Assembly (NCBI GenBank): GCA_963810635.1
Contig: CAWEOB010000002.1
Location: 2,320 to 66,319 of the forward strand
DNA: 64,000 bases
Reading direction: 5' to 3'
Source of the DNA: an uncultured Actinomycetes bacterium
GTDB lineage: Bacteria > Actinomycetota > UBA4738 > HRBIN12
In this document: positions 26,335 to 53,455 of the stretch, in pieces
Numbering within the stretch: the first letter of the stretch is position 1
How the letters are laid out: every line of letters begins with the position of its first letter
The notes under the pieces: model-generated
The model's input: the letters and a program-made list of their open reading frames with translations, nothing else
Told to the model about the DNA's origin: nothing
Database searches by the model: none
Made by a program: the position numbers and the translations under genes

Positions 26335-26352
26335 TTGTGAAACATTTCACAA
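26335..26352. promoter_or_regulatory. Rex operator (perfect TTGTGAA-N4-TTCACAA)
   Basis: ttgtgaaacatttcacaa, read directly. It lies 32 nt upstream of GTG 26384, which heads the reductase-nuoA-N gene string. Confidence 0.8.
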
Positions 26353-26383
26353 GGTCGCCCGACCTGAGGGGGAGCGGGAGCGC

Positions 26384-34740: not shown

Positions 34741-35882
34741 TGGACTGGGTGGACTGGACGATCCTCATCGGGAAGGTCGTCGTGGTCTTCTTCGCGTTGC
34801 TGCTCTCGGTGCTGCTCTACATCTGGATGGAGCGCAAGGTCATCGCGGACATGCAGACGCGCACCGGCCCCCTGCGCGCGGGACCACGTGGGATCCTCAT
34901 CACCCTCGCCGACGGCATCAAGCTGTTCTTCAAGGAAGGGATCCTCCCCACGAACGCCGACCGGCCTATCTACCTCCTGGCGCCTGTGCTCGCGATGATC
35001 CCCGCGTTCCTGGCCTTCGCCGTGATCCCGTTCGGGACGAGCGTGACCATCGCGGGTCGTGAGGTCACCCTCCAGCTGGCGGACCTCGACATCGGGATCC
35101 TCTGGGTGCTCGCGATGACCTCGATCGGCGTCTATGCCGTCGTGCTCGCCGGGTGGTCGAGCGGCTCGAACTACCCGCTCTTGGGCGGCGTCCGATCGAG
35201 CGCGCAGATGATCAGCTACGAGGTGGCCATGGGCCTCGCGTTGATCGCGGTGCTGATGTTCAGCGGGAACCTCCGGCTCTCCGAGGTCGTCGCGGCGCAG
35301 GAGCGCGTCTGGTACGTGTTCCCCCAGCTGCCCGCATTCGTCGTCTTCCTGGTCTGCGCCCTCGCCGAGGTGAACCGGCCGCCGTTCGACCTGGCGGAAG
35401 CCGAGTCCGAGCTCGTGGCGGGGTTCCATACCGAGTACTCGGGCATCACGTTCGCGCTCTTCTACCTCGGTGAGTACGTGAACACCGTCACGGTCTCGGC
35501 CGTCGCGGTGACCCTGTTCCTCGGTGGCTGGAACGGACCGTTCGCGCTGCGCTTCTGGTGGATGTCCGTGTTCTGGTTCCTCTTCAAGCTGACCGCGGTC
35601 ATCTACGTGTTCATCCTGATCCGCGGGACGCTGCCGCGCATGCGCTACGACCGGTTGATGAACTTCGGCTGGAAGATCCTGATCCCGTTCGGTCTGTTCT
35701 GGGTGCTCGCCACGGGCGCCATCATCATCCTGCCCGAGCGCTTCGCCGACGTCGTGTTCTCGCTCGGACCGATCGACGTCTCTCGCGGCCTCTTCATCGC
35801 GATCGGTCTCATCCTGGCGGTCGGGCTCCTCGCCTCGATCGCGAAGCCGTTGCTCGACGACCGCTCGGAGGCGACGCGATGA
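34740..35882 (+). CDS. nuoH: NADH-quinone oxidoreductase subunit H
   Basis: 380 aa with [16 protein letters not shown] and [27 protein letters not shown] motifs. Confidence 0.93.
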
Positions 35883-36370
35883 GCGACCCGCCGGAGCGCC
35901 GCGCCCCCGGCTGGTGGGCCATCGCGAAGGGGATGGGCACGGTCTTCAAGCAGACCTTCCGCCGGGACAACACGGAGCAGTATCCGAAGGAGATCGTGCA
36001 GCCCCCCGAGCGGTCGCATATCGGGCGGCATCTCCTGAACCGACACGAGAACGGCCTGGAGAAGTGCATCGGGTGCGAGCTCTGCGCCTACGCGTGCCCG
36101 GCGGACGCGATCTGGGTCGAGGGCGCCGACAACGACCCGGAGGCTCCGGTGAGTCCGGGGGAGCGTCACGCGAAGGACTACCAGATCAACTACCTGCGCT
36201 GCATCATGTGCGGCCTGTGCGTCGAGGCGTGCCCGACGCGCGCGCTCACGCTCACGAGCTACTACGAGATGGCGTTCACGTCGCGGGAGGACGCGATCTG
36301 GACGAAGGAACGGCTGCTCGAGCCGCCGCCGCCGCTCGGCAGCGACCCGATCGACCGCGAGGGTCGCTGA
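35879..36370 (+). CDS. nuoI: NADH-quinone oxidoreductase subunit I
   Basis: ATGA overlap with nuo[13 protein letters not shown] and [12 protein letters not shown] motifs. Confidence 0.92.
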
Positions 36371-36969
36371 TGCCGCTCGACAACGTGGTGTTCTGGGTCT
36401 TTGCGCCGATCTCGGTCGCCAGCGCGGTGGGGATGCTCCTCATGCGCAACGCGATCCACGCCGCGCTGTTCCTGGTGGTGAACCTCTTCTGCGTCGCCGT
36501 GATGTACCTCTTGCTCGACGCATCGTTCCTGTTCGCGGTGCAGATCATCGTCTACGCGGGCGCGATCATGGTGCTCTTCCTGTTCGTCATCATGCTGCTG
36601 GGTGTCGACACGGGCATGTCGGTGCAGGAGCGGCTCGTGGCGCAGCGGCCGCTCGCGATCCTCCTCGCCGTCGGCTTCGTGCTCGAGCTGTTCGTCGCAC
36701 TGCGAGCAGGGATCGGGTTCGCCACCCACGCCCCGCCGGGGTTCGACGTCGTGAACGAGCCCGGGAACACCCAGGCGCTCGCCGAGGTCTTGTTCCGCGA
36801 GTACTTCTTCCCGTTCGAGGTGACGTCGGTCCTGCTGATCGTCGCCGCGATCGCGGCGATGGTGCTCGCGAAGCGCCAGGCCCCCGCCGTCACCCAGGCC
36901 GAGCTCGAGGCCCATCGGGCAGAGGTGGACGAGGAACTCGAGCATGCCGCGACGGAGGCCCCTGGGTGA
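36370..36969 (+). CDS. nuoJ: NADH-quinone oxidoreductase subunit J
   Basis: TGATG overlap with nuo[22 protein letters not shown] and [15 protein letters not shown] motifs. Confidence 0.9.
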
Positions 36970-37271
36970 GGACACCGATCGCCTACTTCGTGATGCTCTC
37001 CGGGATCCTGTTCGCCCTCGGAACGGTCGGCGTCCTGACGCGTCGCAACGCCCTGGTGATCTTCATGTCGATCGAGCTGCAGCTGAACGCGGTGAATCTC
37101 GCGCTCGTCGCCTTCTCGCGGATGCACAACCAGCTCACGGGCCAGGTGCTCGCCTTCTTCTCGATGGTCGTGGCCGCCGCCGAGGTCGTCGTCGGCCTCG
37201 CCATCATCGTCGCGCTCTACCGCCGTCGGCGGACGGTGGACGTCGACGACGCCCGGGAGCTGCGGTGGTAG
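36966..37271 (+). CDS. nuoK: NADH-quinone oxidoreductase subunit K
   Basis: 101 aa with [27 protein letters not shown] and [13 protein letters not shown] motifs. Confidence 0.92.
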
Positions 37272-39181
37272 GGAGCGAGCTCGTCCCGCAGGAAGCGTCC
37301 GGTGCGATCGGACTCCTGTGGTTGCTCCCGGCGCTCCCGCTGCTCGGTGCGGCGGTCAACCTCTTCGCGGGACGGCGCCTCGGGAGATGGGCCGGGTGGA
37401 TCGCCACCGCCCTGGTGGCGGCGTCGTTCGTGATCGCGCTGGCCGCGGTGGGCGATCTGCTCTCCCACCCCGAGGACGAGAGGCTGTTCGTCCAGCACCT
37501 GCTCGAGTGGATCGACGTCGGGAGGTTCCAGGTCGGCGTGGATCTTCGCCTCGACGGCTTGAGCGCCACGATGATCCTCGTCGTGACCGGGATCGGGTCC
37601 CTGATCCACCTGTACTCGATCGCCTACATGCGGGGCGACCCGCGCTATGGCCGGTTCTTCGCCTACCTCAACCTGTTCGTGTTCTTCATGTTGATGCTGG
37701 TCTTGGGCGCGAACTACCTGCTCCTGTACCTGGGCTGGGAGGGGGTCGGCGTGTGCTCGTACCTCCTGATCGGCTTCTGGTTCGAGAAGGTCGCCAACGT
37801 CGAGGCGGCGAAGAAGGCCTTCATCACGACGCGCATCGGCGACAGCCTCATGCTCGTCGGCCTCGCGATGATCGTGTTCCAGTTCGGCACGCTCGACTTC
37901 CAGGAGGTGTTCGGGGCCGCCCCCGCGGTCCTCACCCAGGGGTGGGCGACGGCGATCGCGCTCCTGCTGCTCGCCGGTGCCATCGGCAAGTCCGCGCAGA
38001 TTCCTCTGCACGTGTGGCTCCCCGACGCGATGGCCGGCCCGACGCCCGTGTCCGCGTTGATCCACGCCGCCACGATGGTGACCGCCGGCGTCTACCTGGT
38101 GGTCCGGTCGGCGCCGATCTTCGAGCTCTCGCCCGTCGCCCTCGACATCGTCGCCTGGGTAGGTCTCCTCACGCTGCTCTTCGCGGGCGTCTGTGCGCTC
38201 GCACAGTGGGACATCAAACGCGCCCTCGCGTACTCCACGATCAGCCAGCTCGGCTTCATGTTCCTGGCGGTCGGCCTGCACGCGTACGCCGCGGCGATGT
38301 TCTTCCTGGTGGCTCACGCGTTCTACAAGGCGCTGCTGTTCCTGGGTTCGGGCTCCGTGATCCACGGCATGCACGACGAGCAGGACATGCGACAGATGGG
38401 GGGGCTCTGGCGCCGCATGCCGGGAACGGCGTTCACGATGGGCATCGGGACGTTGGCGCTCGCCGGCTTCCCGTTCATGACCGGGTTCTTCGCGAAGGAC
38501 GTCGTCCTCGAGATCGCGAACACGAACGAACGCTGGGGGTTCTATGTGCTGGGTTCGGTCGGCGCCTTGCTCTCGGCCCTCTACATCGGCCGACTGTGGT
38601 GCCTCACGTTCGCCGGCACCGCACGGAGCGAGGCGGCGGAGCACGCACACGAGTCCGAGCCGCTCATGGTGGCCCCGCTCGTGGTCCTGGCGGTCGGGGC
38701 GGCCATCGGTGGGCTGTTGAGCATCGGAGCTGAAGGACGCCTCCCGCACTTCCTCGAACCGCTGGTGGGTCTGGTCCCCGAGGGGACGCACGGGCTCCCG
38801 GCTCCCGTCTTCTACACGATCGCGGTGGCGATCACGCTGGTCGGGCTCGCCGTCGCCTGGTGGGTGTACGGATGGGGCCGGGTGGACTGGCTGCGTCTGC
38901 GGGAGCGCTTGGAGCCGCTGCCACAGGCGGCGCTCAACGGCTGGTACGTGGATCGCGCCTACGACGCCCTCATCGTGCAACCGGCGAAGTCCCTCTCCTG
39001 GATCGCGGCCTTCGTGGTCGATGCGCGCGGCATCGACGGACTGGTCAACGCGATCGGGGGAAGCGCGAAACGGATCGCCAACGGTGGCCGGCTCCTGCAG
39101 ACGGGGTTCGTCCGCAGCTACGCCCTCGCGGTGTTCGTCGGCGCCGTCGCCGTGCTCCTCTTCGTGGGGTCGAGGCTATGA
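37265..39181 (+). CDS. nuoL: NADH-quinone oxidoreductase subunit L
   Basis: GTG 37265 overlaps the nuoK 3' end. [18 protein letters not shown] and [34 protein letters not shown] motifs. Confidence 0.92.
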
Positions 39182-39269
39182 ACGATCACGTCCTCACGCT
39201 CACCGTCTTCTTCGTCCCCGTGAGGGCATCGCGATGAACGATCACGTCCTCACGCTCACCGTCTTCTTC
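39178..39269 (+). repeat. perfect 36-nt direct repeat of the nuoM start (copies at 39178-39213 and 39234-39269), creating a 19-codon upstream mini-ORF
   Basis: atgaacgatcacgtcctcacgctcaccgtcttcttc occurs twice, 56 nt apart. Copy 1 begins at the nuoL stop (ATGA) and encodes [19 protein letters not shown]-stop. Its TGA at 39235-39237 overlaps the ATG of copy 2. Confidence 0.9.
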
Positions 39270-40781
39270 CCCCTCGCGGGTGTGGCGATCATCCTGGTGG
39301 GCGGGCGGAGGCTGTCCGACACCGCGGTGAAGGTCGTCGCGCTGGTGACCGCGCTCCTGACGTTCGGTGTCTCCCTCACGATCCTCGGCGCCTTCGACCG
39401 ATCGGCCGGCTCGTACCAGCTCGTCGAGGAGGCGGTCTGGTCGGAGTCGGCGGGGCTGTCCTACATCCTGGGCGTCGACGGCATCAGCCTCTGGCTGGTG
39501 CTGCTGACCACCTTCCTGTTCCCCGTGTCCGTCCTCGCGTCGTGGAAGGTGGAGCGCGACGTGCCTCGGTACATGGCGGCGATGCTCGCCCTGGAGACGG
39601 CCGTGCTCGGCTCCTTCATGGCGCTCGACCTCCTCCTGTTCTTCGTGTTCTTCGAAGCGATGCTCGTCCCGATGTACCTGCTGATCGGCGGCTGGGGTGG
39701 CGAGCGCCGCGTGTACGCCGCCATCAAGTTCTTCCTGTTCACCATGGCGGGATCGGCGTTCCTGCTGGTGGCGGCCATCGTGCTCTACGGGCAGGCTGCC
39801 GACCGGCTCGGCCAGGGCACGTTCGATCTGCGGGCGCTGGCCGCGGTGGCCGACGCGCTCCCCGTGGGCACCGCCCGGGCGCTGTTCCTGGCCTTCTTCG
39901 TCGCCTTCGCCGTGAAGGTGCCGCTCGTGCCTCTCCACACCTGGCTCCCCGACGCCCACACCGAGGCCCCGACCGCCGGTTCCGTCCTCCTGGCGGCCGT
40001 CCTGCTGAAGGTCGGCACCTACGGTCTGATCCGTTTCAACCTGACCCTGTTCCCCGAGGCCTCCCGGTACTTCGCAACCTTCGTGGCGATCCTGGCGGTG
40101 ATCGGGATCGTCTACGGGGCGGTGTGCGCGCTGATCCAGTCCGACGTGAAGCGTCTGGTCGCGTATTCGTCGGTGTCGCACCTCGGCTTCGTGGTGCTGG
40201 GCACGTTCGCGTTCACGGAGCAGGCGGTCACCGGTGGCGTCCTGCAGATGGTGAACCACGGGCTCGCGACCGGCGCTCTGTTCCTGCTCGTGGGCATGGT
40301 CTACGAGCGGACCCATACGCGGCAGCTCTCCGAGATGGGCGGGCTGGCCACGCCGATGCCGTGGCTCCTGGGCGCTTTCCTGTTCACCGTCTTCGCTTCC
40401 GTCGGCGTCCCGGGATTGAACGGATTCGTCGGGGAGTTCCTCGTGATCGCGGGTACGTTCGCCGTCGATCACGTCCTGGGCTCGGTCGCGGTCATCGCCG
40501 TGGTCCTGGCCGCGGTCTATCTCCTCTGGTCGTACCAACGGATGGCGTACGGACCGGTCCGCGACGAGTACAAGCACCTCCCCGACGTCTCGAGGCGCGA
40601 GGTCGCCGTGCTGGCGCCGGTGCTCGCCCTCCTGCTGGTGCTGGGCGTCTACCCGTCGCTCATCACCCGCGACGTCGACCCCGCCACCGAACGCGTGATC
40701 GCGCGTGTCGATCCGCAGCAGGAGACCATCGACATCGGCGACGCCCGCGTCGTCGTGATGGTCGGGAGTGAACAGCCGTGA
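39234..40781 (+). CDS. nuoM: NADH-quinone oxidoreductase subunit M
   Basis: [20 protein letters not shown]..., with [18 protein letters not shown] and [23 protein letters not shown] motifs. Confidence 0.92.
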
Positions 40782-42223
40782 CCCCCGAGATCGTCCTCCG
40801 CCCGGTCCTCCCCGAGCTGCTCCTGGTCGCGGTCGGCATCGTGGGTCTCCTGTACGAGGCGTTCGCGCCTCGGTCCGAGCCGCGGGTGCATCTCCTCATC
40901 GCCGTTGTCGGGATCGTGGCGGCGGGCGTCGCTGCCATCACGCTGTGGGGGTGGGACGGGGCGCCGTTCGTCCTCGGCGACTCGGTGGCGGTCGATCGGT
41001 TCTCGGTGCTCGCGACCGTGATCCTCCTGCCGGTCGCGCTGATCGCATGCATGTACGCCGCCGCGGAGGCGGAGCGGGACAGCTCCGTCTACCGTGGCGA
41101 GTTCTTCCCCCTGGTGTTGTTCGCGACGTCGGGGATGGTCCTGATCGCCGCCGCGAACGACCTGATCCTGGTCTTCCTGGCGCTCGAGATCTTGTCGCTC
41201 TCCCTGTACGTCCTCACCGGCATCACGGGACGCCGGCGGGCAGGCGAGGCAGCCATGAAGTACTTCCTCCTGGGCGCGTTCTCCTCGGCGTTCTTCCTCT
41301 ACGGCGTGGCGATGGCCTACGGAGCCACCGCGAGCACCAAGATCACCGCCATGGCCGTCGCGCTCAGCGGCACCGGGCAGGACCTTGCCCTGGCTCTGCT
41401 GGCGTTGGCCTTCCTGGCGATCGGGTTCGGCTTCAAGGTCTCCGCGGTCCCGTTCCACATGTGGACGCCCGACGTCTACCAAGGGGCGCCCACGCCCGTG
41501 ACCGCCTACATGTCGGCGGCGACCAAGGTGGCGGCGTTCTTCGCGCTGATGCGGGTCTTCGACGTCGCGTTCCAGCCGCTGTCCTGGGATTGGACGCCGA
41601 TCGTCGCCGCGCTGGCCGTGCTCTCGGTGGTGGTCGGATCCTTCCTCGCCATCGCACAGTCCGACGTGAAGCGGATGCTGGCGTACTCGAGCGTGGCGCA
41701 CGCGGGGTTCGTCCTCATGGGCCTGACCGCGGCCGACTCGACCGGGATCGGCGCCGCCATGTTCTACCTGATCGCCTACGCGATCATGACGCTCGGCGCG
41801 TTCGGCATCGTGATGTTCGTGGAGGCCGGCCGTGACGGCCGGACCTCCCTGGCGGACTTCTCGGGGCTCGCCGCTCGGCGGCCGTGGCTGGCGGCGCTCA
41901 TGACCGTCTTCCTCCTGTCCCTGGCCGGGATCCCGCCCACCGTCGGCTTCATCGCGAAGGTGACCGTGTTCTCGGCGGCGATCGGGGCCGGCCGCTGGTG
42001 GCTGGCGTTGGTCGGGGTGTTGACCAGCGTGGTCGCCGCGTTCTTCTATCTTCGCGTCATCGTGTACATGTACATGCGGCAGCCAGAAGGTGAGGTGGGC
42101 GGGTCGACGTCGGCCCTCCCGTCCGTCGCCGTCGGGTTGCTGGCCGTCCTCACGCTCGTCCTGGGCGTGTTCCCGAGCCTCCTCGCGGACGTCCTCGAGC
42201 AGGCGTCGATCCTGAGGTGGTGA
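40778..42223 (+). CDS. nuoN: NADH-quinone oxidoreductase subunit N
   Basis: GTGA overlap with nuo[14 protein letters not shown] and [26 protein letters not shown] motifs. Confidence 0.92.
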
Positions 42224-43245
42224 CCGTCATGCGTCGAGTGATCCCCGGACTCGAACCCCCCGACGCCGTCTTGGAGGCGGCCGTCCGTTCGCGTCTCGAT
42301 CGTGTCGAGGAAGCCCTCGAGAAGGCGGTCGTGGCCGACTCTGATCTGCTGGCCGTCACCGCGTCGCACCTGCTCCAGGCCGGGGGGAAGCGGTTCCGTC
42401 CCATGCTCGTGCTGCTGTCGGGCTACTTCGGCGATCCCACCGATCCTCGCCTGATCCCGGGCTCGGTGTCGATCGAGCTCGTCCACCTGGCCACGCTGTA
42501 TCACGACGATGTCATCGATGAGGCCGTCGACCGTCGGGGCGTTCCCAGTGCCAACGCCCGGTGGGACAACACGGTGGCCATCCTGACCGGTGATTACCTC
42601 TTCGCCCGTGCCTCCGAGATGTCCGCCGACCTCGGCCCCGACGTCTGCCGGCTCCTCGCTCGAACGATCGCGGTGCTCTGTGACGGGCAGATCAGGGAGG
42701 TGGATGTCTCCGGGAAGGTCGAACAGACCGAGGACAGCTACCTCGAGATCATCCGACGCAAGACGGGGGTCCTGATCGCCACCTCGTGCCGGCTCGGCGG
42801 CATGCTCTCCGATGCGAACGAGGCCTACGTGGAGACGCTGGATCCGTTCGGCGAGTCGCTCGGTCTCGCCTTCCAGCTCTCGGACGACATCATGGACGTC
42901 ATCTCCACGCAGATCGAGCTCGGCAAGGAGCCGGGAACCGACCTGAAGGAAGGGGTCTACACCCTCCCCGTGCTGCATGCGCTGCATGAAGGGAGGCACC
43001 GAGAGGAGCTGCAGGACCTGTTGCGCCACGGCGCTCCGGACGGCGAGCTGCTGGATCGAGCGCTCGAGATCATCCGGACCGGGGGGTCGATCGAGCATGC
43101 CCGGGCGGCGGTTGCCGCCGAGGTGGCCCGGGCTGTGGACCTCGCGCATCAGCTCCCCGACGGGGCGGCCCGCCACGCGTTGGTGCAGCTCGCCCGGTTC
43201 CTCGCCGTGCGATGCGGAGCGGATCCGGGGGCGGACCCATCTTGA
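42217..43245 (+). CDS. long-chain polyprenyl diphosphate synthase (HepT/GrcC1-like; menaquinone side chain)
   Basis: Both Asp-rich motifs are present ([18 protein letters not shown]), with a GKRFRP motif. Start is GTG 42217 (overlapping the nuoN stop) or ATG 42229. Confidence 0.85.
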
Positions 43246-43297
43246 TCGGCTGCGCAGCAGACGCGAACACCTGCACTGCTAGGATACGGACCGCCGT

Positions 43298-43315
43298 TCG
43301 AGAAATGATTCACGA
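43298..43315. promoter_or_regulatory. degenerate Rex-operator-like site (TCGAGAA-N4-TTCACGA) just upstream of the second nuo cluster
   Basis: tcgagaaatgattcacga, read directly. It matches TTGTGAA/TTCACAA at 11 of 14 half-site positions and shares the TCG...CGA flanks of the 12925 site. It lies 12 nt before GTG 43327. Confidence 0.35.
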
Positions 43316-43326
43316 GCTCACGAAGG

Positions 43327-43716
43327 GTGCCTGAGGGGCTGTCGTTGGGGGAGGACTACTACTCGTCCTACGGTGTCGTGCTGGCCGTGATCGTTGCCGG
43401 CGCGCTGCTCGTCATCGTGGCATTCACGGCTGCCCGACTCATCGCGCCTCGGCGTCCGCATGTCGGTGGCAAGCTCACGACGTACGAATGCGGGATCGAC
43501 CCCGTCGGCGAAGGTTGGTCCCAGACGCAGGTGCGGTACTACGTCTACGGCTTCCTCTTCGTCATCTTCGACGTCGAGAGCGTGTTCCTGTTCCCGTGGG
43601 CGCGGGTGTTCCAGTCGCTCGGCTACCGTGCGGTCTGGTCCATGGGCATCTTCATCGGGATCCTCGGGGTCGGGCTGCTGTACGCGTGGCGCAAAGGGGT
43701 CCTGCGGTGGGCGTGA
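43327..43716 (+). CDS. nuoA: NADH-quinone oxidoreductase subunit A, second copy
   Basis: 129 aa with YECGIDP and [15 protein letters not shown] motifs. Confidence 0.9.
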
Positions 43717-44213
43717 TCACGGAGCGGACCCCGATCCCCAGGATCAAGCCGGTCAAGTTCCTCCTTAACTGGGGCCGCCGGTACAGCCTGTGGGTGTTCA
43801 ACTTCGGCCTCGCCTGCTGCTCGATCGAGTTCATCGCGGCTTCCACCGCGAAGAACGACTTCATCCGGCTGGGCGTCATCCCCTTCGCGCACGGTCCACG
43901 TCAGGCCGACCTCCTGCTCGTGGCGGGGACGTTGACCGACAAGATGGCGCCAGTCATCAAGCGCTTGTACGACCAGATGCCCGACCCGAAGTACGTGATC
44001 TCGTTCGGGTCGTGTGCCAATTGTGGCGGCCCCTACTGGGACAGTTACTCTGTCACGAAAGGCGTCGATCAGATCATCCCCGTCGATGTCTACGTCCCGG
44101 GGTGTCCGCCTCGCCCGGAAGGTCTCCTGCACGGGATCGTGAAGTTGCAGGAGAAGATCAAGGACGAAGACATCCAGGAGAAGTTCCGGCGTGGGACGAC
44201 CGCTGTCGGCTGA
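43707..44213 (+). CDS. nuoB: NADH-quinone oxidoreductase subunit B, second copy
   Basis: [21 protein letters not shown] and VPGCPPRPE motifs. Start is GTG 43707 or GTG 43713. Confidence 0.9.
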
Positions 44214-44706
44214 CGAGGTCGCCCCGCGCCTACGGGCCCGGTTCGGCGACGACGTCGAGGTCGTGGACGCCTTCGGTCACGCGGTTGCCACCGTGCCGAA
44301 CCCGCGCTACCACGATGTGATCCGCTTCCTGCGTGACGAGCCGGAGTTCGCCTGCGACTTCTGCGACTTCACCACCGCGGTCGACTTCGGCCCCGAGGGT
44401 GGGTTCGAGGTCGTGACGCATCTGTTCTCCACCGAGCACCATCACAACATCCGGGTCAAGGTGAAGCTCGCGTACGACGAACCCGCGATCGCGACCATCA
44501 GCGACCTCTTCCCGACCTGCGACTGGCACGAGCGCGAGATGATGGAGATGTTCGGGCTCGAGGTGACCGGGCACCCTCGCCCGGTGAAGCTCCTGCTCTC
44601 GGAGCTGTTCGAGGGCAACCCTCTCCGCAAGGACTTCCCGCTCATGAGCCGTGAGGTCAAGCCGTGGCCCGGCGCCGTGGAAGGGGAGGAGGACGAGGAG
44701 GAGTGA
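44191..44706 (+). CDS. nuoC: NADH-quinone oxidoreductase subunit C, second copy (171 aa, not fused to a NuoD domain)
   Basis: [27 protein letters not shown]...GNPLRKDFP motif and an acidic tail. Confidence 0.85.
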
Positions 44707-45716
44707 TCGCGGTTCTCGCCCAGTCCTTCGTCGACGATCTGACGTCGAACCTCTGGCTCGCGCTCCTCGCGAAGACGGTGCTCGTGCTCGGCTTCTTCCT
44801 GGTGGTGCCGCTGGGCGTCGGCTACATGGAGCACAAGGTTCTGGCCCACATGCAGGCGCGTCTCGGGCCGATGGAGGCGGGCGGGTTCCACGGATGGGCA
44901 CAGCTGGTGGCCGACGGCGTGAAGTTCATCCAGAAGGAGGACGTCGTGCCGGCCGCGGCCGACCGATCCGTGTTCTCCCTGGCACCCGCGGTCGCCATGA
45001 TCCCCTACATCGCGGTGCTCGTCGTCCTGCCCTTCGGGGCGTCGATCTGGGCGCTCGACCTGGACGTCGGCATCTTCTTCGTGCTCGCCATGTCCAGCAT
45101 CGGCGTGATCGGCGTCCTGATGGCCGGCTGGGCTTCCGCCAACAAGTTCTCGCTGATCGGAGCGCTCCGCGCAGCGGCACAGCTGATCGCCTACGAGCTC
45201 CCGCTCGTGCTCGCCGCCGCCGCGCTCGTGATGCAGGCAGGCACCATGTCGCTCGTCGGGATCGCCGAGTCCCAGTCGCACTACTGGTACATCGTCTACC
45301 CCTGGCAGGCGGTCGGGTTCGTCATCTTCATGATCGCGATCGTCGCCGAGCTGACCCGTCCGCCCTTCGACATGCCCGTGGCGGACTCCGAGATCATCTT
45401 CGGGGCGTACACGGAGTACACGGGGCTGAAGTTCGCTTTCTTCCTGCTGGCGGAATACGGCGGGATCGTAGCGATGTCGGGCATCGCGTCCACGTTGTAC
45501 CTGGGGGGGTACCAGCCGCTCCCCGGTCTCGCCTTCATCCCCGAGCCGCTCTGGGCGATCGGCAAGATCTTCGCGCTCGCGTTCGTGATCGTGTGGCTCC
45601 GAGCCACCTTCCCGCGTCTGCGCGAGGACCAGCTCCAACGGTTCGCGTGGGTGGGGCTCACGCCGCTCGCCCTCGTGCTGATCATGGTCGTCGCGGTCTA
45701 CGAGGTGGGGGTCTGA
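44703..45716 (+). CDS. nuoH: NADH-quinone oxidoreductase subunit H, second copy
   Basis: GTGA overlap with the second nuo[17 protein letters not shown] and [27 protein letters not shown] motifs. Confidence 0.9.
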
Positions 45717-46210
45717 TGGTGGAGCCGCAGCTCGATCGAGGGATCGGCCAGGGCCTGCTGAAGGGTCTATCCGTGACGTTGCGGACCATGCTGCGGCCCT
45801 CTATCACCGTCCAGTACCCCCACGTGAAGCCGAGCCTCCCGGCGCGGAGCCGCGGCGTGATCGCTCTCAAGGAAGCCAACTGCACCGTGTGCTACAAGTG
45901 CTCGCGCGAATGTCCCGACTGGTGCATCTACATCGATGCCCACAAGGAGTCCCACGAGCCGGCCGGCGGCGGCCGGGCCCGGAGCGCCAAGATCCTCGAC
46001 CGTTTCGCCATCGACTACGCCCTCTGCATGTACTGCGGGATCTGCGTCGAGGTGTGCCCGTTCGACGCGCTCTTCTGGAGCCCGGAGTTCGAGTACGCCG
46101 AGTACGACATCCACGAGATGGTCCACGAGCGGGAACGCTTGGAGGAATGGACCTACACGGTCCTGCCGCCGCCGCCGCTCGAGGAAGGTGCCGAGGAGGT
46201 CGCGTCGTGA
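45716..46210 (+). CDS. nuoI: NADH-quinone oxidoreductase subunit I, second copy
   Basis: TGATG overlap with nuo[13 protein letters not shown] and [12 protein letters not shown] motifs. Confidence 0.9.
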
Positions 46211-46710
46211 CGTCCCAGGAGTACGCGTTCCTGGTGGTCGCCACCGTCGGTTCGCTCTCGGCCATCGCGGTCGTGACCGCTCGCAACGTGGTGCATGCAG
46301 CCCTGTACCTCGTGGTGACCCTCGCGTCGGTCGGGGTGACGTTCCTGCTCCTCGGGGCGGAGTTCGTGGGCTGGGTCCAGATCCTGATCTACGTCGGCGC
46401 CATCGTGATCCTGTTCCTGTTCGGACTGATGCTGACGAAGGCGCCGATCGGACGTGACACGCTCGACCATCAGAGCCGGGGACTCGGCTTGCTGGTCGCG
46501 GTGCTGATGTTCGTTGGCTTGGTGGGTCTGATCACGGCCGCGTTCCCGATCGCGGACGCCCAGGTGCCGCCGCCGGCGCCGGGAGCCTCCGCGATCCTCG
46601 GCGAGGCGCTGTTCCGTGACTACATCCTTCCCTTCGAAGCCGTCTCGTTCGTGCTGCTCGCTGCCCTCATCGGCGCGATCGTGCTGGCGAGGAAGGACGA
46701 GGGCACCTGA
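46207..46710 (+). CDS. nuoJ: NADH-quinone oxidoreductase subunit J, second copy
   Basis: GTGA overlap with nuo[21 protein letters not shown] and [15 protein letters not shown] motifs. Confidence 0.88.
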
Positions 46711-46711
46711 C

Positions 46712-47013
46712 GTGGTCCGCCTGCCGCTGCTCCTGATCTTCTCGGCGCTGCTCTTCAGCGCGGGATCTACGGCGTGCTCGCCCGGCGCAACGCGGTCATG
46801 GTGCTCATGGCCATCGAGCTCATGCTGAACGCCGTCAACGTGAACCTCGTTGCCTTCTCGGCCGAGCTGCAGGACGTCGGGCCGCAGGTGTTCGCCCTGT
46901 TCGTGATCGCGATCGCAGCGGCCGAGGTCGGCATCGGCCTTGCCATCGTGATCCTGCTGTTCCGCAACCGGGCGTCGATCAACGTGGACGAGGTGAACCT
47001 CCTCAAGTGGTAG
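46712..47013 (+). CDS. nuoK: NADH-quinone oxidoreductase subunit K, second copy, with an apparent 1-nt deletion at 46762-46767
   Basis: GTG 46712 gives [21 protein letters not shown] 46774.. holds the rest ([27 protein letters not shown]). Reading GGG as GGGG restores ...[14 protein letters not shown]. The break falls on GGGATC. Confidence 0.85.
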
Positions 47014-49008
47014 ACCTCGGGATCCTCGCCGCCGAAGGGAGCGAGGCTGTCGCACACGGCGTGCCGAACTGGTTCGTCCAGCACGCGTACCTGATCACGC
47101 TCCTCCCGTTCGCCGCCGCGGCGCTCACCTTGTTCTTCGGCAAGCGAACCCCCGGCAAGGGACCGGTGTACGGCATCGTGTCCCTGGCGGTCGGGCTGGT
47201 CCTGTCGCTCGGCGTGCTGTGGAGCTTCGCGCAAGGCGGCGGCACCTTCGAGCACAACATCGAGTGGTTCACGATCGGGCCGCTGCACATGGAGCTCGGC
47301 TTCTTCGTCGACGGCCTGACCGCGGTGATGCTCGTGGTGGTCACCTCCATCTCGTTGGCGGTCCACGTCTACGCGCTCGGGTACATGCACGGCGACTCGC
47401 GCTACACGTGGTTCTACGTGGTGCTGTCGCTCTTCACGGGGGCCATGCTCGTGGTGGTCCTGGCCAGCAACCTGTTCCAGTTGCTCGTGGGGTGGGAGAT
47501 CGATGGGCGTCTGCTCCTACCTGCTGATCGGTCACTGGTTCGAGGATCACGCGAATTCGAGCGCCGCGATCAAGGCGTTCATCACGACGCGGATCGGCGA
47601 CGTCCCCTTCATGTTCGGCATCTTCGCCTTGGTTCTGGCCACCGGCCTGACCACGTCGAACATCCAGGTGATCGGCGACGAGGTGGCCGGGGGGCACGTC
47701 TCCACGTTGCTGATCACCGTCTCGGCGCTGCTCCTGTTCGGCGGCACGATCGGCAAGAGCGCCCAGTTCCCGCTCTACGTGTGGTTGCCGGATGCGATGG
47801 CGGGCCCCACGCCCGTCTCCGCGTTGATCCACGCCGCCACCATGGTGGCCGCGGGCATCTATCTGGTGGCGCGGATGTTCGAGGTCTTCGTCCAGGCCGA
47901 CCCGATCGCACTGACGGTCGTGGCCGTGGTCGGCGCCATCACCCTGTTGCTCGCCGCGTTCCTGGCCCTCGTGCAGAACGACATCAAGAAGGTGCTGGCG
48001 TACTCCACCATCTCGCAGCTCGCCTACATGGTGGCGGCGCTCGGCATGGGCGAGGCCGGGTATCCGGCCGCCATGTTCCACCTGTTCACGCACGCCTTCT
48101 TCAAGGCCCTGCTCTTCCTCGGAGCCGGCTCGGTGATCCACGCCGTCCACTCCAACGACATGAAGGACATGGGCGGGCTCCGCAAGCCGATGCCCATCAC
48201 GTATTGGACCTTCCTGATCGGTTCGCTGGCCCTCGCGGGCGTCCCACCGCTCGCCGGCTTCTTCTCGAAAGACGAGATCGTGCTGGTCGCGAAGGACGAA
48301 GGGGTGTGGTGGCTCGCGGTCGTCCTCCTCGTCGGCGCGGCGATGACCGCCTTCTACACCACGCGCTTGGTGCTCAAGACCTTCTTCGGCGAGTACCGGG
48401 GAGAAGCTCACCCGCACGAGTCCCCGCGCGTGATGACGACCCCGCTGATCGTGCTCGCCGTCACCACCTGCTTCGTCGGGCTGCTCGGGTTCGCGCCGGT
48501 CGGCGCCCCGTTCCTGGACTGGGTCTACTTCGGCAACGAGCCCCACGAGGCCATCTTCAGTCCGCTGGTCGCCGCGATCTCGGTCGCCGTGGTCCTGATC
48601 GGCGTCGCGATCGGGTGGACCTTGTACAAGCGGTATCGGACGCCCGACCCGGTCGAACGGCTCGGCCCGCTCTACCGGCTGCTCGACCACAAGTACTACC
48701 TGGACGACCTGTACTGGCGCGGCATCGTGAAGCCGATCCGCGACCCGCTCGCTGCCGGCGTCTACTGGTTCAACCAGAACGTGCTGGACGGTGTCGTGAA
48801 CGGCGCGGCGTCGGTGTCGCGTGGCCTCGGGTCGCTGGTGATGTGGTTCGACCGAACCGTGATCGACGGCGCCGTGAACGGCGCCGGGGGTGTGATGGAG
48901 CTCTTCGGCAGAGGACTGCGGACCATCCAGACGGGCAGGGTGCAGTGGTACGCGGTGGCGTTGTTCGCCGGCGTGATCATCTTGACCGTCGTCTTCGTGA
49001 GGGTGTGA
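47007..49008 (+). CDS. nuoL: NADH-quinone oxidoreductase subunit L, second copy, with an apparent 1-nt insertion at 47498-47503
   Basis: The N-terminal 164 aa are in ORF 47007.. (ending ...[11 protein letters not shown]). ORF 47503..49008 continues with [13 protein letters not shown] and [34 protein letters not shown]. The break falls on GAGATCGATG. Confidence 0.88.
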
Positions 49009-49041
49009 GAAGGAGCCGATCGTGGAACCGAAGGGGAACCG

Positions 49042-50583
49042 ATGACCTGGGAGAACTCAGCGATCACGATCACGACGCTGCTGCCCATCGTGGGGGCGCT
49101 GGCGATCCTGCTCGTTCCGAAGGACCGGGACCGGATGGTTCGGGGGCTCGGCATCGCCGTGACCGGGCTCGCCTTCGTGTTGTCCGTCCTCATCGCCATC
49201 ACCTACGACTACGGCGCGGGCGGGCTCCAGTTCGTCCTCGACGTCCGGTGGATCCCCGCCATCGGCGCGCGGTACCACGTGGGGATCGACGGGATCTCCC
49301 TGCCGCTCTACGTGCTGACGTTCCTGCTCGGGCTGCTGTGCTCGATCTACACGTGGCGGTTCGTCCCCGAGCCGGGCCGGACGAAGGCCTTCGTCGCGTT
49401 GACGCTGCTCCTCATCACCGGCATGGCGGGCACCTTCATCGCCTTCGACCTGATCCTCTTCTTCGTGTTCTGGGAGCTGGTCCTGGTCCCGATGTACTTC
49501 CTCATCGGCGTCTGGGGTTCCGCCAACCGCCAGTACGCGTCCATCAAGTTCTTCCTGTACACGCTCTTCGGGTCGATCTTCATGCTGCTGGGATTCCTCG
49601 CCCTGTACTTCGAGGGTCCGTCGATCGCCGGGAAGCACACGTTCGACCTCGTCGTCCTGACCGGCTTCGGAGCCGGCGGCGGCTACGCGCACACGTTCCA
49701 GCTGATCGTGTTCGGGGCGATCGCCCTGGGCTTCGCCGTCAAGGTCCCGATGTGGCCGTTCCACACGTGGCTCCCCGACGCCCACACCGAGGCGCCCACG
49801 ATCGGGTCGGTGTTGCTGGCCGGGATCATGCTGAAGATGGGCACGTACGGGTTCGTGCGCATCGCGCTCCCCGTGTTGCCCGAGGGGGCGGTGGCCTATG
49901 CCCCATGGATCGGCGGGCTCGCCGCCATCGCCATCGTCTACGCGGCGCTCGCGTGTCTCGCGCAGAAGGACCTGAAGCGGCTGATCGCGTTCTCGTCGGT
50001 CGGTCACATGGGGTTCGTGATGCTCGGGATCGCCACGTTGACCACCATCGGCATCCAGGCCGCCATCTTCGGCATGGTGGCCCACGGCGTGATCACGGGC
50101 ATGCTGTTCTTCTGTGTGGGGTCCATCTACGACCGCTACCACACCCGCGAGATCGCGCAGATCGGCGGGGGCATGGCGCAGTCGATGCCGAAGATGGCCG
50201 GCATCTTCGCCTTCGTGGCGATCGCGTCCCTCGGTCTCCCGGGGCTGGCCGGGTTCTGGGGCGAGGTGATGGCGCTCCTCGGGTCCTTCAGCCCCAACGA
50301 GGTGGCCGGGCTGGACGTGGGCCTGTTCCGCTTCTTCATGGTCCTCGGCGGGATCGGCACCATCCTCACCGCGGGGTACTTCCTGTGGATGCTGCAACGC
50401 GTGAACATGGGCACGCTCCCGGAACGATGGGGCGCGTCCGCGTTCCGTGACATCCTCACGATCGAGTGGATCTCCTGGGTGCCGCTACTGGCGCTCATCC
50501 TGGTCCTGGGTCTGTTCCCCAGCCTGGTCCTCAACGTGACCGAATCCGGTGTGAACACCCTGACCAGCATCTTCGGGGCCTGA
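49042..50583 (+). CDS. nuoM: NADH-quinone oxidoreductase subunit M, second copy
   Basis: 513 aa with FWELVLVPMYFLIGVWGS and [27 protein letters not shown] motifs. Confidence 0.92.
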   Translation: MTWENSAITITTLLPIVGALAILLVPKDRDRMVRGLGIAVTGLAFVLSVLIAITYDYGAGGLQFVLDVRWIPAIGARYHVGIDGISLPLYVLTFLLGLLCSIYTWRFVPEPGRTKAFVALTLLLITGMAGTFIAFDLILFFVFWELVLVPMYFLIGVWGSANRQYASIKFFLYTLFGSIFMLLGFLALYFEGPSIAGKHTFDLVVLTGFGAGGGYAHTFQLIVFGAIALGFAVKVPMWPFHTWLPDAHTEAPTIGSVLLAGIMLKMGTYGFVRIALPVLPEGAVAYAPWIGGLAAIAIVYAALACLAQKDLKRLIAFSSVGHMGFVMLGIATLTTIGIQAAIFGMVAHGVITGMLFFCVGSIYDRYHTREIAQIGGGMAQSMPKMAGIFAFVAIASLGLPGLAGFWGEVMALLGSFSPNEVAGLDVGLFRFFMVLGGIGTILTAGYFLWMLQRVNMGTLPERWGASAFRDILTIEWISWVPLLALILVLGLFPSLVLNVTESGVNTLTSIFGA

Positions 50584-50590
50584 GGCTTCC

Positions 50591-52060
50591 GTGGACATCG
50601 ACTATCACGCGATCGCGCCCGCGCTGATCCTCGGCGCAACGGTCCTCGTCGTGTTGATCGTCGATGCCTTCCTCCCGGCCAGGGCCAAGTGGCTGGCCAT
50701 GCCACTTTCGCTCGTGGGCGTGGTGGCGTCGCTCATCGCGGCGCTGAGCTTGATCGGCGAGGACGTCTCCACGTTCGGCGGGCACTACGTGGTCGACAAC
50801 TTCACGATCCTGTTCCAAGTGTTCTTCCTCTCCGCGGCGATCGTCGTGCTCGCGCTCTCGCTGCGGTACATGCGCGAAGGAGGCTTCTACCAAGGCGAGT
50901 ACTACTTCCTGCTGCTCACCGCGTTCCTCGGCTGCGTGCTCATGCCCGCTTCGCGTGACCTGTTGATGCTGTTCATCGCGCTCGAGCTCGTGTCGGCGCC
51001 AGGTTTCTTGATGGCGGCGTTCCGGAAGTCGGACGTCAAAGGCAACGAGGGAGGATTGAAGTTCTTCATCATCGGTGTGCTCTCCACCGCGGTGATGCTC
51101 TACGGGATGAGCCTCATCATCGGGCTCACGAACGGCGCCACCCGGCTCGACGACGTCGCGGTGGGTCTCGCGGGGCTCGAGGGCGCGAAGCAGACGCTGG
51201 CCGACGTGGCGATCCTCTTCGTGGTGGTGGGGTTCGCCTTCAAGGTCTCGGCGGTCCCGTTCCAGTTCTGGGCCCCGGACGCCTACGAGGGCGCTCCGGT
51301 GCCGGTGGCCGCCTTCTTGGCGGTTGCCAGCAGCGCCGCGGGGTTTGCCGGCCTCCTCCAGTTGATGTTCGTGGCGTTCGCTCCCGAATGGGAGTTCTGG
51401 GTGCCGTTGTTCGCCACGCTGTCCGTGCTCACCATGACGGTGGGGAACCTCGTCGCCTTGCAGCAGCGACAGCTGGTGCGCCTGCTCGCGTACTCCGGTA
51501 TCGCCCAGTCCGGGTACATCCTGCTGCCGTTCGCGCTCGTCTCCGGCGATCAGGCCGTCAACGACACGGCGTTCGCCGCGGCGGTGAGCTACATCCTGAT
51601 CTACGGGATCATGAACATCGGGGCCTTCGCGGTCGCGACCGCCGTGAGCCGTCGCCATCCGCAGCTGATGATCTCGGACTTCAAGGGGCTCGTACGGATC
51701 GCGCCCGTGCTCGCGATCGGCATGACCGTGTTCATGGTGTCCCTCGCCGGCATCCCGCCCACCGGAGGCTTCTGGGCCAAGCTGTTCATCTTCCGTGCGG
51801 CGATCGATAGGGGCGGCCTCGGGATCCCGCTCGCCGTGATCATGCTCGTGAACTCGGTCGTGAGCATCTACTACTACTTCTCGGTCCCGCGGGCCATGAT
51901 CTTCCAGGAACCCGAGCCGGGCGAGACGCTCCGGCCCTCCTGGCTCGTCACCGCGGTCGTGGCCCTGGCCATGGTCGTCCTCCTCGCGATCTTCGTCCTC
52001 CCGAACCCGATCGCCCGGCTCGGCGACCTCTCCACGCTCGCCGGTTTCGCCGGAGGTTGA
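50591..52060 (+). CDS. nuoN: NADH-quinone oxidoreductase subunit N, second copy
   Basis: 489 aa with FIALELVSAPGFLM and [26 protein letters not shown] motifs. Confidence 0.92.
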   Translation: MDIDYHAIAPALILGATVLVVLIVDAFLPARAKWLAMPLSLVGVVASLIAALSLIGEDVSTFGGHYVVDNFTILFQVFFLSAAIVVLALSLRYMREGGFYQGEYYFLLLTAFLGCVLMPASRDLLMLFIALELVSAPGFLMAAFRKSDVKGNEGGLKFFIIGVLSTAVMLYGMSLIIGLTNGATRLDDVAVGLAGLEGAKQTLADVAILFVVVGFAFKVSAVPFQFWAPDAYEGAPVPVAAFLAVASSAAGFAGLLQLMFVAFAPEWEFWVPLFATLSVLTMTVGNLVALQQRQLVRLLAYSGIAQSGYILLPFALVSGDQAVNDTAFAAAVSYILIYGIMNIGAFAVATAVSRRHPQLMISDFKGLVRIAPVLAIGMTVFMVSLAGIPPTGGFWAKLFIFRAAIDRGGLGIPLAVIMLVNSVVSIYYYFSVPRAMIFQEPEPGETLRPSWLVTAVVALAMVVLLAIFVLPNPIARLGDLSTLAGFAGG

Positions 52061-52099
52061 CGGACCGGTCGGCGCTCGCTTCGCTCGGGAGCGGCAGCG

Positions 52100-53455
52100 T
52101 CAGATCATGGTGCCGAGGATCGCCCGCACGTGCTCGATCCGCGTCTGGGGGTTCACGAAGCACAGACGCGCGACCTTCTCTCCGTTCCACGAGGTCGGTT
52201 GGACGAACGCGATCTGCGCATCGAGCAGCCGCCTCCACCAGGTCTCGTAGTCATCCGAGCGCCACCCGAGCCGGCGGAACAAGATCACGGACAGATCCGG
52301 TTCCATCACGAGCTCCAGCTGCGGATGGCGGCGGATCTCCTCGGTGGTCATCCGCACGAGGGCCAGCACCGCCTCAACGGCGTCGCGGTACGCGTCGGTG
52401 CCGTGCGTCGCCAGCGAGAACCACAGCGGGAGCCCACGAGCGCGCCGCGAGAGGTGGTACGCATAGTCGGCAGGGTTCCAATCCGGTGTGGACTGTGACG
52501 AATCGAGGTACGAGGCGATCTGACGATGCGCGTCGAGCGCCGTCCCGGGATCCCGGTACAGCAACGCGCAGGCGTCGTACGGGGCGAAGAGCCACTTGTG
52601 CGGATCGACGATGAACGAGTCCGACCGCTCGACCCCTTCGAAGAGCGACCGGATGCTGGGAGCGAGCAAGCCTGCACCACCGTACGCGCCGTCCACGTGG
52701 AACCAGAGCCCGCGCTCCTCGCAGACGTCGGCCACGCCGCGCAGGTCGTCGATGGTTCCCGCGTTCGTCGCGCCGGCCGAGGCGACGACGGCGAACAGGT
52801 CGTCGCCACCACCCTCTCCGTCGAGCGTCGTGCGGAGGGCGTCTCCGGTGAGCCGTCCTCTCTCGTCGCCCGGGATCGTGAGGATGTCCACGTCCATGAC
52901 GCGCGCTGCGGCCGCGACGCTCGAATGCACCGTCTCGCAGGCGGCGAACCGCCACCGGACGGGCGGTTCTCCGGCCCGGTTCCGCGCCACGTGGCGCGCC
53001 GTCACCAGGGCCGAGAGGTTGCCCGCCGAGCCGCCGGACACGAACACGCCTCCGGTCCCTTCCGCGTAGCCGACCAAGGAAGCGATCCACGCCAGCGCTT
53101 GGTTCTCGGCCCAGATCGCGCCGGCCCCGTCGATCCATCCGGCGGCGATCGTGGACGAGGCGCCGACGATGAGGTCGAACAGCACGCTCGCCTTCGTGGG
53201 CGCGGCGGGAACGAAGGCCAGGGACGAGGGGTGGTCCGTCGAGATGGTCGAGGGCGCGAGGACGTCCGCCCAGAGCCGGAGGGCCTCCCGCCAACCGATC
53301 CCGTCGGCAGTCACCGTCCGTCCGGCGAGAGCCGTCAGCTCCTGCTCCGGCAGCACCCGGTCGAGAGGTTGGGGGTTCGCGATCCGCTCGCGCGCGTAGG
53401 CCTCGATCGCGCGAGCGAGCTCGTCCGTCTCCTCGGTGTAGCCGTGCAGTTCCAT
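52100..53455 (-). CDS. pyridoxal-dependent (group II) amino-acid decarboxylase family protein
   Basis: 451 aa with VSGGSAGNLSAL, FHVDGAYGG and SFIVDPHKWLFAPYD (PLP lysine) motifs. Confidence 0.8.
   Translation of the reverse strand: MELHGYTEETDELARAIEAYARERIANPQPLDRVLPEQELTALAGRTVTADGIGWREALRLWADVLAPSTISTDHPSSLAFVPAAPTKASVLFDLIVGASSTIAAGWIDGAGAIWAENQALAWIASLVGYAEGTGGVFVSGGSAGNLSALVTARHVARNRAGEPPVRWRFAACETVHSSVAAAARVMDVDILTIPGDERGRLTGDALRTTLDGEGGGDDLFAVVASAGATNAGTIDDLRGVADVCEERGLWFHVDGAYGGAGLLAPSIRSLFEGVERSDSFIVDPHKWLFAPYDACALLYRDPGTALDAHRQIASYLDSSQSTPDWNPADYAYHLSRRARGLPLWFSLATHGTDAYRDAVEAVLALVRMTTEEIRRHPQLELVMEPDLSVILFRRLGWRSDDYETWWRRLLDAQIAFVQPTSWNGEKVARLCFVNPQTRIEHVRAILGTMI

Follow-up and report, generated by a model that had tools for sequence, protein, structure and literature searches.

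A nuoD-less second complex I-like cluster in an uncultured actinobacterial lineage resembles Streptomyces nuo2 and probably relies on a detached nuoD2

For Streptomyces, published work describes a single operon of nuoA2, nuoB2 and nuoH2 to nuoN2 and puts nuoD2 at another locus. NuoC2 is either unlisted in this literature or counted as missing, and one Streptomyces paper called the function of nuo2 unclear, listed C and L as missing and suggested a hybrid nuo/nuo2 machinery. Our literature search for a functional study of nuo2 found passing mentions only. Here we describe a cluster of this kind in a 64-kb stretch of contig CAWEOB010000002.1 from an uncultured soil actinobacterium; the whole stretch is called the window below. 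Ten genes for complex I-like subunits lie at 43327-52060, and nuoD, nuoE, nuoF and nuoG are missing from this interval, in which all open reading frames (ORFs) are accounted for. Sequence comparison indicates that the cluster is an orthologue of Streptomyces nuo2, that is, a complex I relative without the NADH module in an uncultured lineage of Actinomycetota. The nuoD2 of this organism is probably encoded as a lone gene elsewhere in the genome. The D gap is most likely ordinary, an expected feature of the phylum and not a new kind of enzyme.

The nuo2 cluster and its gene products

As the first-pass annotation of this DNA had described, the cluster (nuo2, or cluster 2) lies downstream of a complete nuoA-N operon (nuo1, or cluster 1) and one prenyl synthase gene. 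All ten genes are on one strand in the order A2-B2-C2-H2-I2-J2-K2-L2-M2-N2, and Pfam supports each of them. The features are listed here (aa, amino acids; nt, nucleotides), with related loci named by numbers such as L002.

27657-42223: canonical, complete nuoA-N operon (cluster 1), which holds D, E, F and G
29111-30427, plus strand: nuoD1, long type, with the quinone-site Tyr and a segment of about 41 aa that is missing from D2
42217-43245, plus strand: polyprenyl synthase gene between nuoN1 and nuoA2, with a 7-nt overlap with nuoN1
43327-43716, plus strand: nuoA2, Oxidored_q4 (E=4e-34), 129 aa from GTG 43327
43713-44213, plus strand: nuoB2, 166 aa, Oxidored_q6
44191-44706, plus strand: nuoC2, 171 aa, Complex1_30kDa (profile positions 2-123 of 124)
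44703-44706, plus strand: GTGA junction where the NuoC2 stop overlaps the NuoH2 start, the site of nuoD2 in four related lineages
44703-45716, plus strand: nuoH2, 337 aa, NADHdh (E=2e-99)
45716-46210, plus strand: nuoI2, 164 aa, two Fer4 (4Fe-4S) motifs
46207-46710, plus strand: nuoJ2, 167 aa, Oxidored_q3
46712-47013, plus strand: nuoK2, frameshifted, Pfam match limited to profile positions 17-95
47007-49008, plus strand: nuoL2, frameshifted, split between an ORF that matches Proton_antipo_N and a following ORF that matches Proton_antipo_M from position 15
49042-50583, plus strand: nuoM2, 513 aa, Proton_antipo_M, 80% identical to M2 of L002
50591-52060, plus strand: nuoN2, 489 aa, Proton_antipo_M

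The first-pass annotation had called this a tightly coupled ten-gene cluster without D, E, F or G. The Pfam matches and the junctions agree with that, but the frameshifts in nuoK2 and nuoL2 had been overlooked. A2 and B2 are joined by GTGA, B2 and C2 overlap by 23 nt, C2 and H2 share the GTGA noticed at first pass together with the 171-aa length of NuoC2, H2 and I2 are joined by TGATG and I2 and J2 by GTGA; then follow a 1-nt spacer between J2 and K2 and a 7-nt overlap of K2 and L2. The start of nuoA2 is more likely TTG 43345 (123 aa), which has GAGGGG 6 nt upstream, and counted from residue 2 the NuoA2 protein is 85% identical to A2 of L001 and L002. Genes E, F and G are confined to cluster 1. 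Without D, E, F and G, cluster 2 is not a canonical 14-subunit complex I (Nuo14).

The cofactor motifs were retained, as had been noted before. Alignment with structures in the PDB showed all four cysteines of cluster N2 in NuoB2, including the tandem CC (motifs GLACC, GSCAN and PGCPP), and NuoI2 keeps both CxxCxxCxxxCP motifs. NuoH2, B2, C2 and I2 are all of complex I type and not of hydrogenase type. Among solved structures NuoH2 comes closest to complex I, with E=6e-65 for the NuoH/Nqo8/NdhA chains, and scores against complex I chains exceed those against Mbh/FHL chains for B2 (185 vs 114 bits) and C2 (72 vs 35 bits). The tandem-Cys N2 motif of NuoB2 is also unlike the expectation for group 4 membrane-bound [NiFe] hydrogenases, Mbx or Ech. 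A hydrogenase, Mbx or Mrp reading of the cluster was excluded by the PDB and Pfam scores, and no NiFe large-subunit gene is present.

With no more than 30-52% identity between B2, C2 and I2 and their counterparts B1, C1 and I1, the two clusters are old paralogues and not a recent duplication. We considered that nuoA-N had been duplicated in tandem recently and had then lost a contiguous D-E-F-G block, and excluded this by the low identity and by the relatives with D2, which are also without E/F/G.

The ratio of non-synonymous to synonymous substitutions (dN/dS) in the window lineage ranged from 0.05 to 0.31 over A2, B2, C2, H2 and I2 (B2 0.05-0.08; I2 0.10-0.18; C2 0.19-0.31; H2 0.18-0.31), compared with 0.29-0.36 for NuoN1 of the canonical operon. 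Because dN/dS is low and the cofactor motifs are kept, the nuo2 cluster seems to be in use in this lineage.

The missing nuoD and its place in relatives

NuoD was sought over the 64 kb by tblastn with NuoD1 and five NuoD2 proteins. With NuoD1 as query only nuoD1 (29111-30427) matched, and the five NuoD2 queries added nothing, which bears out the first-pass claim that no NuoD-like frame follows nuoC2. Relatives were collected from reference genomes with a profile of NuoI2, the most specific marker for nuo2 (30% identical to NuoI1). The profile retrieved at least 596 stretches, and the best 80 loci were annotated with the proteins of the window. These loci belong to uncultured Actinomycetota, Solirubrobacterales, Nitriliruptorales, many Streptomyces, Nonomuraea, Actinomadura, Spirillospora and Microbispora. 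At every annotated locus the cluster-2 proteins of the window matched better than its cluster-1 paralogues. The cluster is orthologous to Streptomyces nuo2: the NuoI2 profile retrieves those loci, cluster-2 matches beat cluster-1 matches and the rooted tree described below agrees. The partial second nuo clusters in Streptomyces mentioned in the first-pass annotation were thus the right relatives, and there too nuoD2 is published apart.

The C2-H2 junction is spanned by 72 of the 80 loci. No D gene is present at 68 of these 72 junctions, nor was any D remnant found at the 68. The absence of D, which had been called striking, is a known actinobacterial arrangement. The independent contigs L001, L002 and L093 have the same layout as the window (nuo1, prenyl synthase, then A2-B2-C2-H2 to N2) and share the overlap of C2 stop and H2 start. 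Because the D-less junction recurs with a 171-aa NuoC2 in independent assemblies, it is no artefact of this sequence. This length is the family norm, with at least 120 protein clusters of 169-179 aa at identity of at least 68%. The first-pass annotation would have given up its description for an adjacent nuoD2 or for a NuoC2 truncated from a NuoCD fusion. Both a truncated fusion and an overlooked nuoD are excluded: no nuoD2 is adjacent, no frame has similarity to D, and NuoC2 is full-length.

About 26 window-lineage genomes have the D-less architecture in common, and no D2 was found within 10 kb of nuo2 in any of the roughly 26 loci of this lineage. Because these genomes share it with intact genes, the D-less architecture appears to be old and maintained. 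In Streptomyces loci the C2-H2 gap is 0.5-1.3 kb and codes for a low-complexity C-terminal tail of C2; no D2 remnant was found in these gaps. The NuoC2 of Streptomyces sp. CA-249302 (L047:6101-9018) has 577 aa, with a NuoC domain and a tail of about 410 aa rich in Ala, Gly, Ser, Pro and Glu.

Four loci have a short D2 between C2 and H2, in the order A2-B2-C2-D2-H2-I2 and onwards:

L034:5770-6951: in-cluster nuoD2 (Nitriliruptorales)
L038:7767-8915: in-cluster nuoD2
L058:2505-3686: in-cluster nuoD2
L059:7792-8940: in-cluster nuoD2

Because these four loci retain D2 at that place, the ancestral nuo2 was an 11-gene cluster of NUO11 type with nuoD2 between C2 and H2. The 11-gene lineage of L038 and L059 has about 58% G+C, against 66-72% in all sampled D-less lineages. 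We built a rooted neighbour-joining tree on A2+B2+H2+I2+J2+K2, and a separate tree of D2. In the cluster tree the window lineage is monophyletic with 99% bootstrap support, the D-containing L034 groups with D-less Actinomycetia (83%), and a single clade of all D-less clusters is found in only 1% of replicates. Since the rooted trees do not unite the D-less clusters, nuoD2 seems to have departed from the cluster at least two times, once in the window lineage and independently in Streptomyces/Streptosporangiales.

A detached D2 was found in Nonomuraea gerenzanensis (NZ_LT559118.1), where a D-less nuo2 is at about 1.21 Mb, nuo1 at 1.14 Mb and a lone D2 at 0.47 Mb. This D2 is about 740 kb from nuo2 and 51% identical to the D2 of L038. 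It was located with a D2 seed; fetching 174 kb around nuo1 and nuo2 had shown none. The gene (L088:7941-9095) is beside folK/folP/folE-like ORFs, named by eye from their translations, and this neighbourhood fits that of SCO3392 in S. coelicolor. The nuo2 cluster of Nonomuraea (L004) is itself interrupted. Its A2 and B2 genes are separated by an HExxH peptidase-like ORF, and the H2-I2 gap has methyltransferase-, AraC-type-regulator- and Ser/Thr-kinase-like ORFs (also named by eye from translations):

L004:9287-11026: first interruption of Nonomuraea nuo2
L004:13450-16990: second interruption of Nonomuraea nuo2

The Nonomuraea NuoI2 has a Pro/Ala-rich tail that the window NuoI2 is without. PLSDB wrongly files the 11.85-Mb chromosome of this organism under plasmids.

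For the window lineage itself, a homologue search started from the D2 of L038 stayed within that lineage, at identities of 79% or more, and yielded nothing from window-lineage contigs. A third D2 lineage, named D2w, appeared as fragments in a search of representative proteins, and the composite of these fragments retrieved at least 120 clusters. The D2w proteins have 394-431 aa, nearly all of them 394-400, and come from soil metagenomes and metagenome-assembled genomes (MAGs) of Actinomycetota. D2w stands alone in eight contigs, where the surrounding 10 kb on either side are free of nuo genes. Its context is conserved: whiB, ridA, selB, selA and sometimes an opp transporter precede it, and downstream are a convergent Methyltransf_28 (PF02636) gene and then NUDIX, MBL and crp genes.

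D2w is placed with L034 and the D2 of Actinomycetia in the D2 tree (94.5% bootstrap), apart from the L038 group, and this is the position which the window lineage has in the cluster-2 tree (83%). The tetranucleotide correlation of D2w loci is 0.52 to window-lineage loci, close to the 0.57 within the window lineage, while it is 0.37 to Streptomyces and -0.23 to D-containing lineages; for two D2w loci the window itself is the best match. In addition, the D2w contigs and the MAG contigs of the window lineage come from one project, with interleaved accession numbers. Tree position, composition and source project together suggest that D2w may be the detached D2 of the window lineage.

NuoD2 is a distinct short NuoD of 382-397 aa (382-393 aa for the in-cluster forms, which end in GDIDR and have 42-45% identity to NuoD1). 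It lacks the segment of about 41 aa of NuoD1 and is 42-47% identical to it, and outside Actinomycetota its nearest relative is a Bacillus NuoD with 47.6% identity. Aligned to Thermus Nqo4, D2w has Trp at Tyr87, the ligand of the quinone head group, keeps His38 and has Glu at Asp139. This Trp was present in all D2 sequences examined, with Tyr in D1; the D2-type proteins also share the Glu at Asp139, and the low-G+C relative P0242 also has Trp at the Tyr87 position. A published analysis linked the change of Tyr87 to Trp with inhibitor resistance and low decyl-ubiquinone activity. D2 also retains an Arg within the motif GYMHR(G/A); the matching residue of D1 is Thr (GYLHTG). We take this Arg to be at the position of the mitochondrial NDUFS2 arginine that is dimethylated by NDUFAF7, and Methyltransf_28 to be the family of NDUFAF7/MidA. 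Lone D2w genes adjoin a gene of this family, usually convergent:

L089:10001-13773: D2w-Methyltransf_28 pair
L091:10001-12263: D2w-Methyltransf_28 pair
L095:10001-12313: D2w-Methyltransf_28 pair
L096:608-2921: D2w-Methyltransf_28 pair
L097:10001-13405: D2w-Methyltransf_28 pair

In Nonomuraea a Methyltransf_28 homologue is 4.3 kb from the lone D2 (L088:2688-3602 vs 7941-9095). A detached nuoD2 with Trp at the quinone site, paired with an NDUFAF7-type methyltransferase, could conceivably be a checkpoint for building the alternative complex, which would be a milder variant of the reading with a shared NuoD1 discussed below.

Several points weigh against a lone nuoD2 in this organism. The window itself has no D2 gene. 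The trees are neighbour-joining only, with 83% at the key node, and similarity of composition is weak evidence. Because D2 seems to have departed independently in the window lineage and in Streptomyces, Streptomyces and Nonomuraea would be analogies for this lineage and not a matter of inheritance. When sample accessions and whole-genome shotgun (WGS) prefixes were compared, D2w and a D-less nuo2 were not found together in one window-lineage genome: the D2w samples ERZ25039488, 510, 533, 588, 602, JBBQFX01 and JBBDWR01 had no match among the nuo2 samples (ERZ25039483, 490, 565 and 600). The complete relative OY969099.1 (3.13 Mb) is absent from the D2w matches listed (at least 120). Finally, the frameshifts of K2 and L2, if real, would leave nuo2 inactive in this strain.

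The enzyme which we propose would be a complex I relative of NUO11 type without NuoE/F/G, and the window cluster would supply ten of its eleven subunits. The Nuo2 parts list, as judged from sequence, would thus have eleven entries, including NuoC2 and the distinct short NuoD2. By homology to solved complex I, A2, H2, J2, K2, L2, M2 and N2 are predicted to form the proton-pumping membrane arm. The larger share of the quinone module would come from B2 (cluster N2), C2 and I2, which has two 4Fe-4S clusters. NuoD2, made from a lone gene, would join B2, C2 and H2 as the eleventh subunit and close the quinone pocket. A donor other than NADH would reduce the clusters of I2, and electrons would pass to N2 in B2 and on to menaquinone in a pocket built by B2, D2 and H2, coupled to proton pumping by the L2/M2/N2 arm. 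In solved complex I, NuoC packs against NuoD, and the two are fused in E. coli; the conserved, full-length NuoC2 therefore implies a NuoD partner.

Alternative explanations and the frameshifts

The first-pass annotation had offered three options for the missing D: a D paralogue elsewhere, sharing of NuoD from the first operon, or a functionally distinct assembly. The first is best supported, by the in-cluster D2 genes, by Nonomuraea and by D2w, and the other two are disfavoured.

If NuoD1 were shared, nuoD2 would have been lost and NuoB2, C2, I2 and H2 would assemble around NuoD1, so that a single quinone-site subunit serves two different complex I-type enzymes. The nuo2 genes lie directly downstream of nuo1 on the same strand, with the prenyl synthase gene alone between them, and in a promoter and terminator scan of 42000-53000 nothing exceeded the shuffled background, so no terminator-like site separates them by this measure. 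The absence of D2 from the window and from 10 kb around nuo2 in its lineage, the hybrid machinery suggested for Streptomyces, and the fact that D2w is not tied to a window-lineage genome also fit with sharing. However, NuoD1 has only 42-47% identity to D2 and carries the segment which D2 lacks, and B2, C2 and I2 are distant from their cluster-1 paralogues; the D-containing relatives show that these three evolved alongside the D2 type. According to Spero et al., recombination across clades is rare among complex I subunits. In Nonomuraea, where the matter can be tested, a D-less nuo2 and a lone D2 coexist, and a fitting lone-D2 lineage exists in D2w. We consider sharing of NuoD1 unlikely.

A second possibility is that nuo2 is being lost here, with nuoD2 gone and nuoK2 and nuoL2 true pseudogenes. 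Two adjacent genes are frameshifted. When intact orthologues (K2 of L001 and L002 among them) were used in tblastn, K2 and L2 each matched in two pieces in two frames, and DNA alignment placed the breaks. The nuoK2 gene has an apparent 1-base deletion at about 46764 (GCGGG-ATC), with the first 18 codons in one frame and the remainder in another. The nuoL2 gene has an apparent 1-base insertion at 47502 (GAGATCgATGGG) compared with intact L2 of 654-673 aa. Moreover, in 67 related loci from the window lineage, Streptomyces and Streptosporangiales, the gene right after nuoN2 codes for an htpX-like M48 peptidase. No M48 homologue was found anywhere in the window, where nuoN2 is followed after 39 bp by a pyridoxal-phosphate (PLP) decarboxylase gene on the opposite strand; the htpX-like gene is accessory and not part of the enzyme.

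Against decay, genes outside nuo2 are broken as well. In the canonical operon nuoG1 is frameshifted at about 34160-34172 (32064-34229, then 34171-34740), and a polyprenyl synthase gene upstream of nuo1 is split at about 25300 (25290-25330), which makes four frameshifts within about 27 kb. Long-read MAG relatives have scattered nuo frameshifts too: H2 in L001, many in L003, L1/M1/N1 in L009, K2 in L019 and L1 in L093. Relatives have intact K2 and L2, and outside the single-base breaks the codons of K2 and L2 in the window are 62-94% identical to their orthologues. Long-read base calling typically goes wrong at methylated motifs. The indels of K2, L2 and G1 each abut GATC, the prenyl synthase break being the one of four that does not; as GATC occurs once per 83 bp in the window, this adjacency is only suggestive. 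Because nuoG1 and the prenyl synthase gene are also broken, MAG relatives are similar, the codons are conserved and the indels adjoin GATC, the frameshifts in K2 and L2 most likely stem from errors in the assembly and not from gene decay. With dN/dS well below 1 along the lineage and D-less clusters with intact genes in about 26 of its genomes, a decaying cluster is very unlikely.

A genuinely D-less machine built around the membrane arm, such as an ion translocator capped by B2/C2/I2 and without a quinone pocket, would fit the absence of D from the cluster and the hint of an unusual site given by Trp in known D2, but it is hardly credible, since an electron wire with N2 ligands and both NuoI2 clusters but no acceptor site is implausible, NuoC is known for no role beyond packing against NuoD, NuoH2 is of complex I type, and other lineages have the same cluster type with D2 in place or elsewhere.

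A lone nuoD2 elsewhere in the genome thus remains our preferred explanation. Second complex I-like enzymes that have no NADH module are widespread among the Actinomycetota of soil (at least 596 stretches in reference genomes), and related proteins are abundant in soil metagenomes. As by-products and small advances, this analysis brought out an ancestral nuo2 with 11 genes, a nuoD2 that became detached more than once, Trp in the place of Tyr at the quinone site, and the pairing of D2 with a methyltransferase gene. Two of them are leads: Trp at the canonical quinone-binding Tyr, and a lone D2 beside an NDUFAF7-type methyltransferase whose target Arg is kept in D2 and not in D1.

Genomic setting and comparison with known systems

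The DNA of the window is rich in G+C (66-73%) and forms a respiratory gene island with these further features:

7180-7920: Rex-type redox regulator gene, upstream of the respiratory genes
within the respiratory island: cytochrome b gene and cytochrome c biogenesis genes
16640-20612: cytochrome c oxidase genes
23010-25133, minus strand: ctaA-ctaB fusion, one 707-aa ORF with COX15/CtaA and UbiA/CtaB domains
26327-27634: geranylgeranyl-reductase-like flavoprotein

The cytochrome oxidase genes and nuo1 have the ctaA-ctaB fusion (heme A synthase and heme O synthase) between them. Two polyprenyl synthase genes and the geranylgeranyl-reductase-like flavoprotein bracket nuo1 (25060-27634), which points to co-located genes for the menaquinone side chain. 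The position of the prenyl synthase gene between nuoN1 and nuoA2 is conserved in relatives.

Other enzymes also combine an eleven-subunit core with an alternative donor. The archaeal F420H2:methanophenazine oxidoreductase (Fpo) has such a core and a separate input subunit and sets a precedent for an alternative to NADH as donor. Neither the window nor its flanks showed a homologue of FpoF/FpoO, and a link of nuo2 with F420 is pure speculation. NDH-1 of cyanobacteria and chloroplasts is a ferredoxin:plastoquinone oxidoreductase with an eleven-subunit core, without the N-module and encoded at several loci. It has ferredoxin-docking subunits of NdhS/O/V type, none of which was seen near nuo2, and for NuoC2, NuoI2 and NuoB2 the Ndh subunits give lower scores than those of mitochondria or Paracoccus.

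The NUO11-type complex I of Bacillus cereus, Chlorobi and others, with 11 subunits, is without NuoE/F/G like the window cluster. Its D gene is within the operon, whereas that of the window cluster is split off. The literature groups short NuoD proteins like D2 as early NUO11. The 11-gene nuo2 of L034, L038, L058 and L059 has the same ten genes in the same order as the window, often directly after nuo1, but has kept nuoD2.

The closest described system is Streptomyces nuo2 (SCO4599-SCO4608 in S. coelicolor), which has the same order A2-B2-C2-H2-I2-J2-K2-L2-M2-N2 without D/E/F/G, a separate nuoD2 and, as in the window, a C2 stop overlapping the H2 start. Identity to the window is 70% for I2, 80% for B2 and about 60% for H2. 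The two differ in several respects. Streptomyces nuo1 and nuo2 are described as disparate loci, whereas in the window nuo2 follows nuo1 and one prenyl synthase gene. Streptomyces C2 and B2 have long low-complexity tails which are missing here, the htpX-like gene after N2 is absent from the window, and by the tree the departure of D2 in Streptomyces appears independent of that in the window lineage. The surroundings of the lone D2 differ too: selA and Methyltransf_28 for D2w, which is likely the matching lineage, and fol genes in Nonomuraea and presumably also in S. coelicolor.

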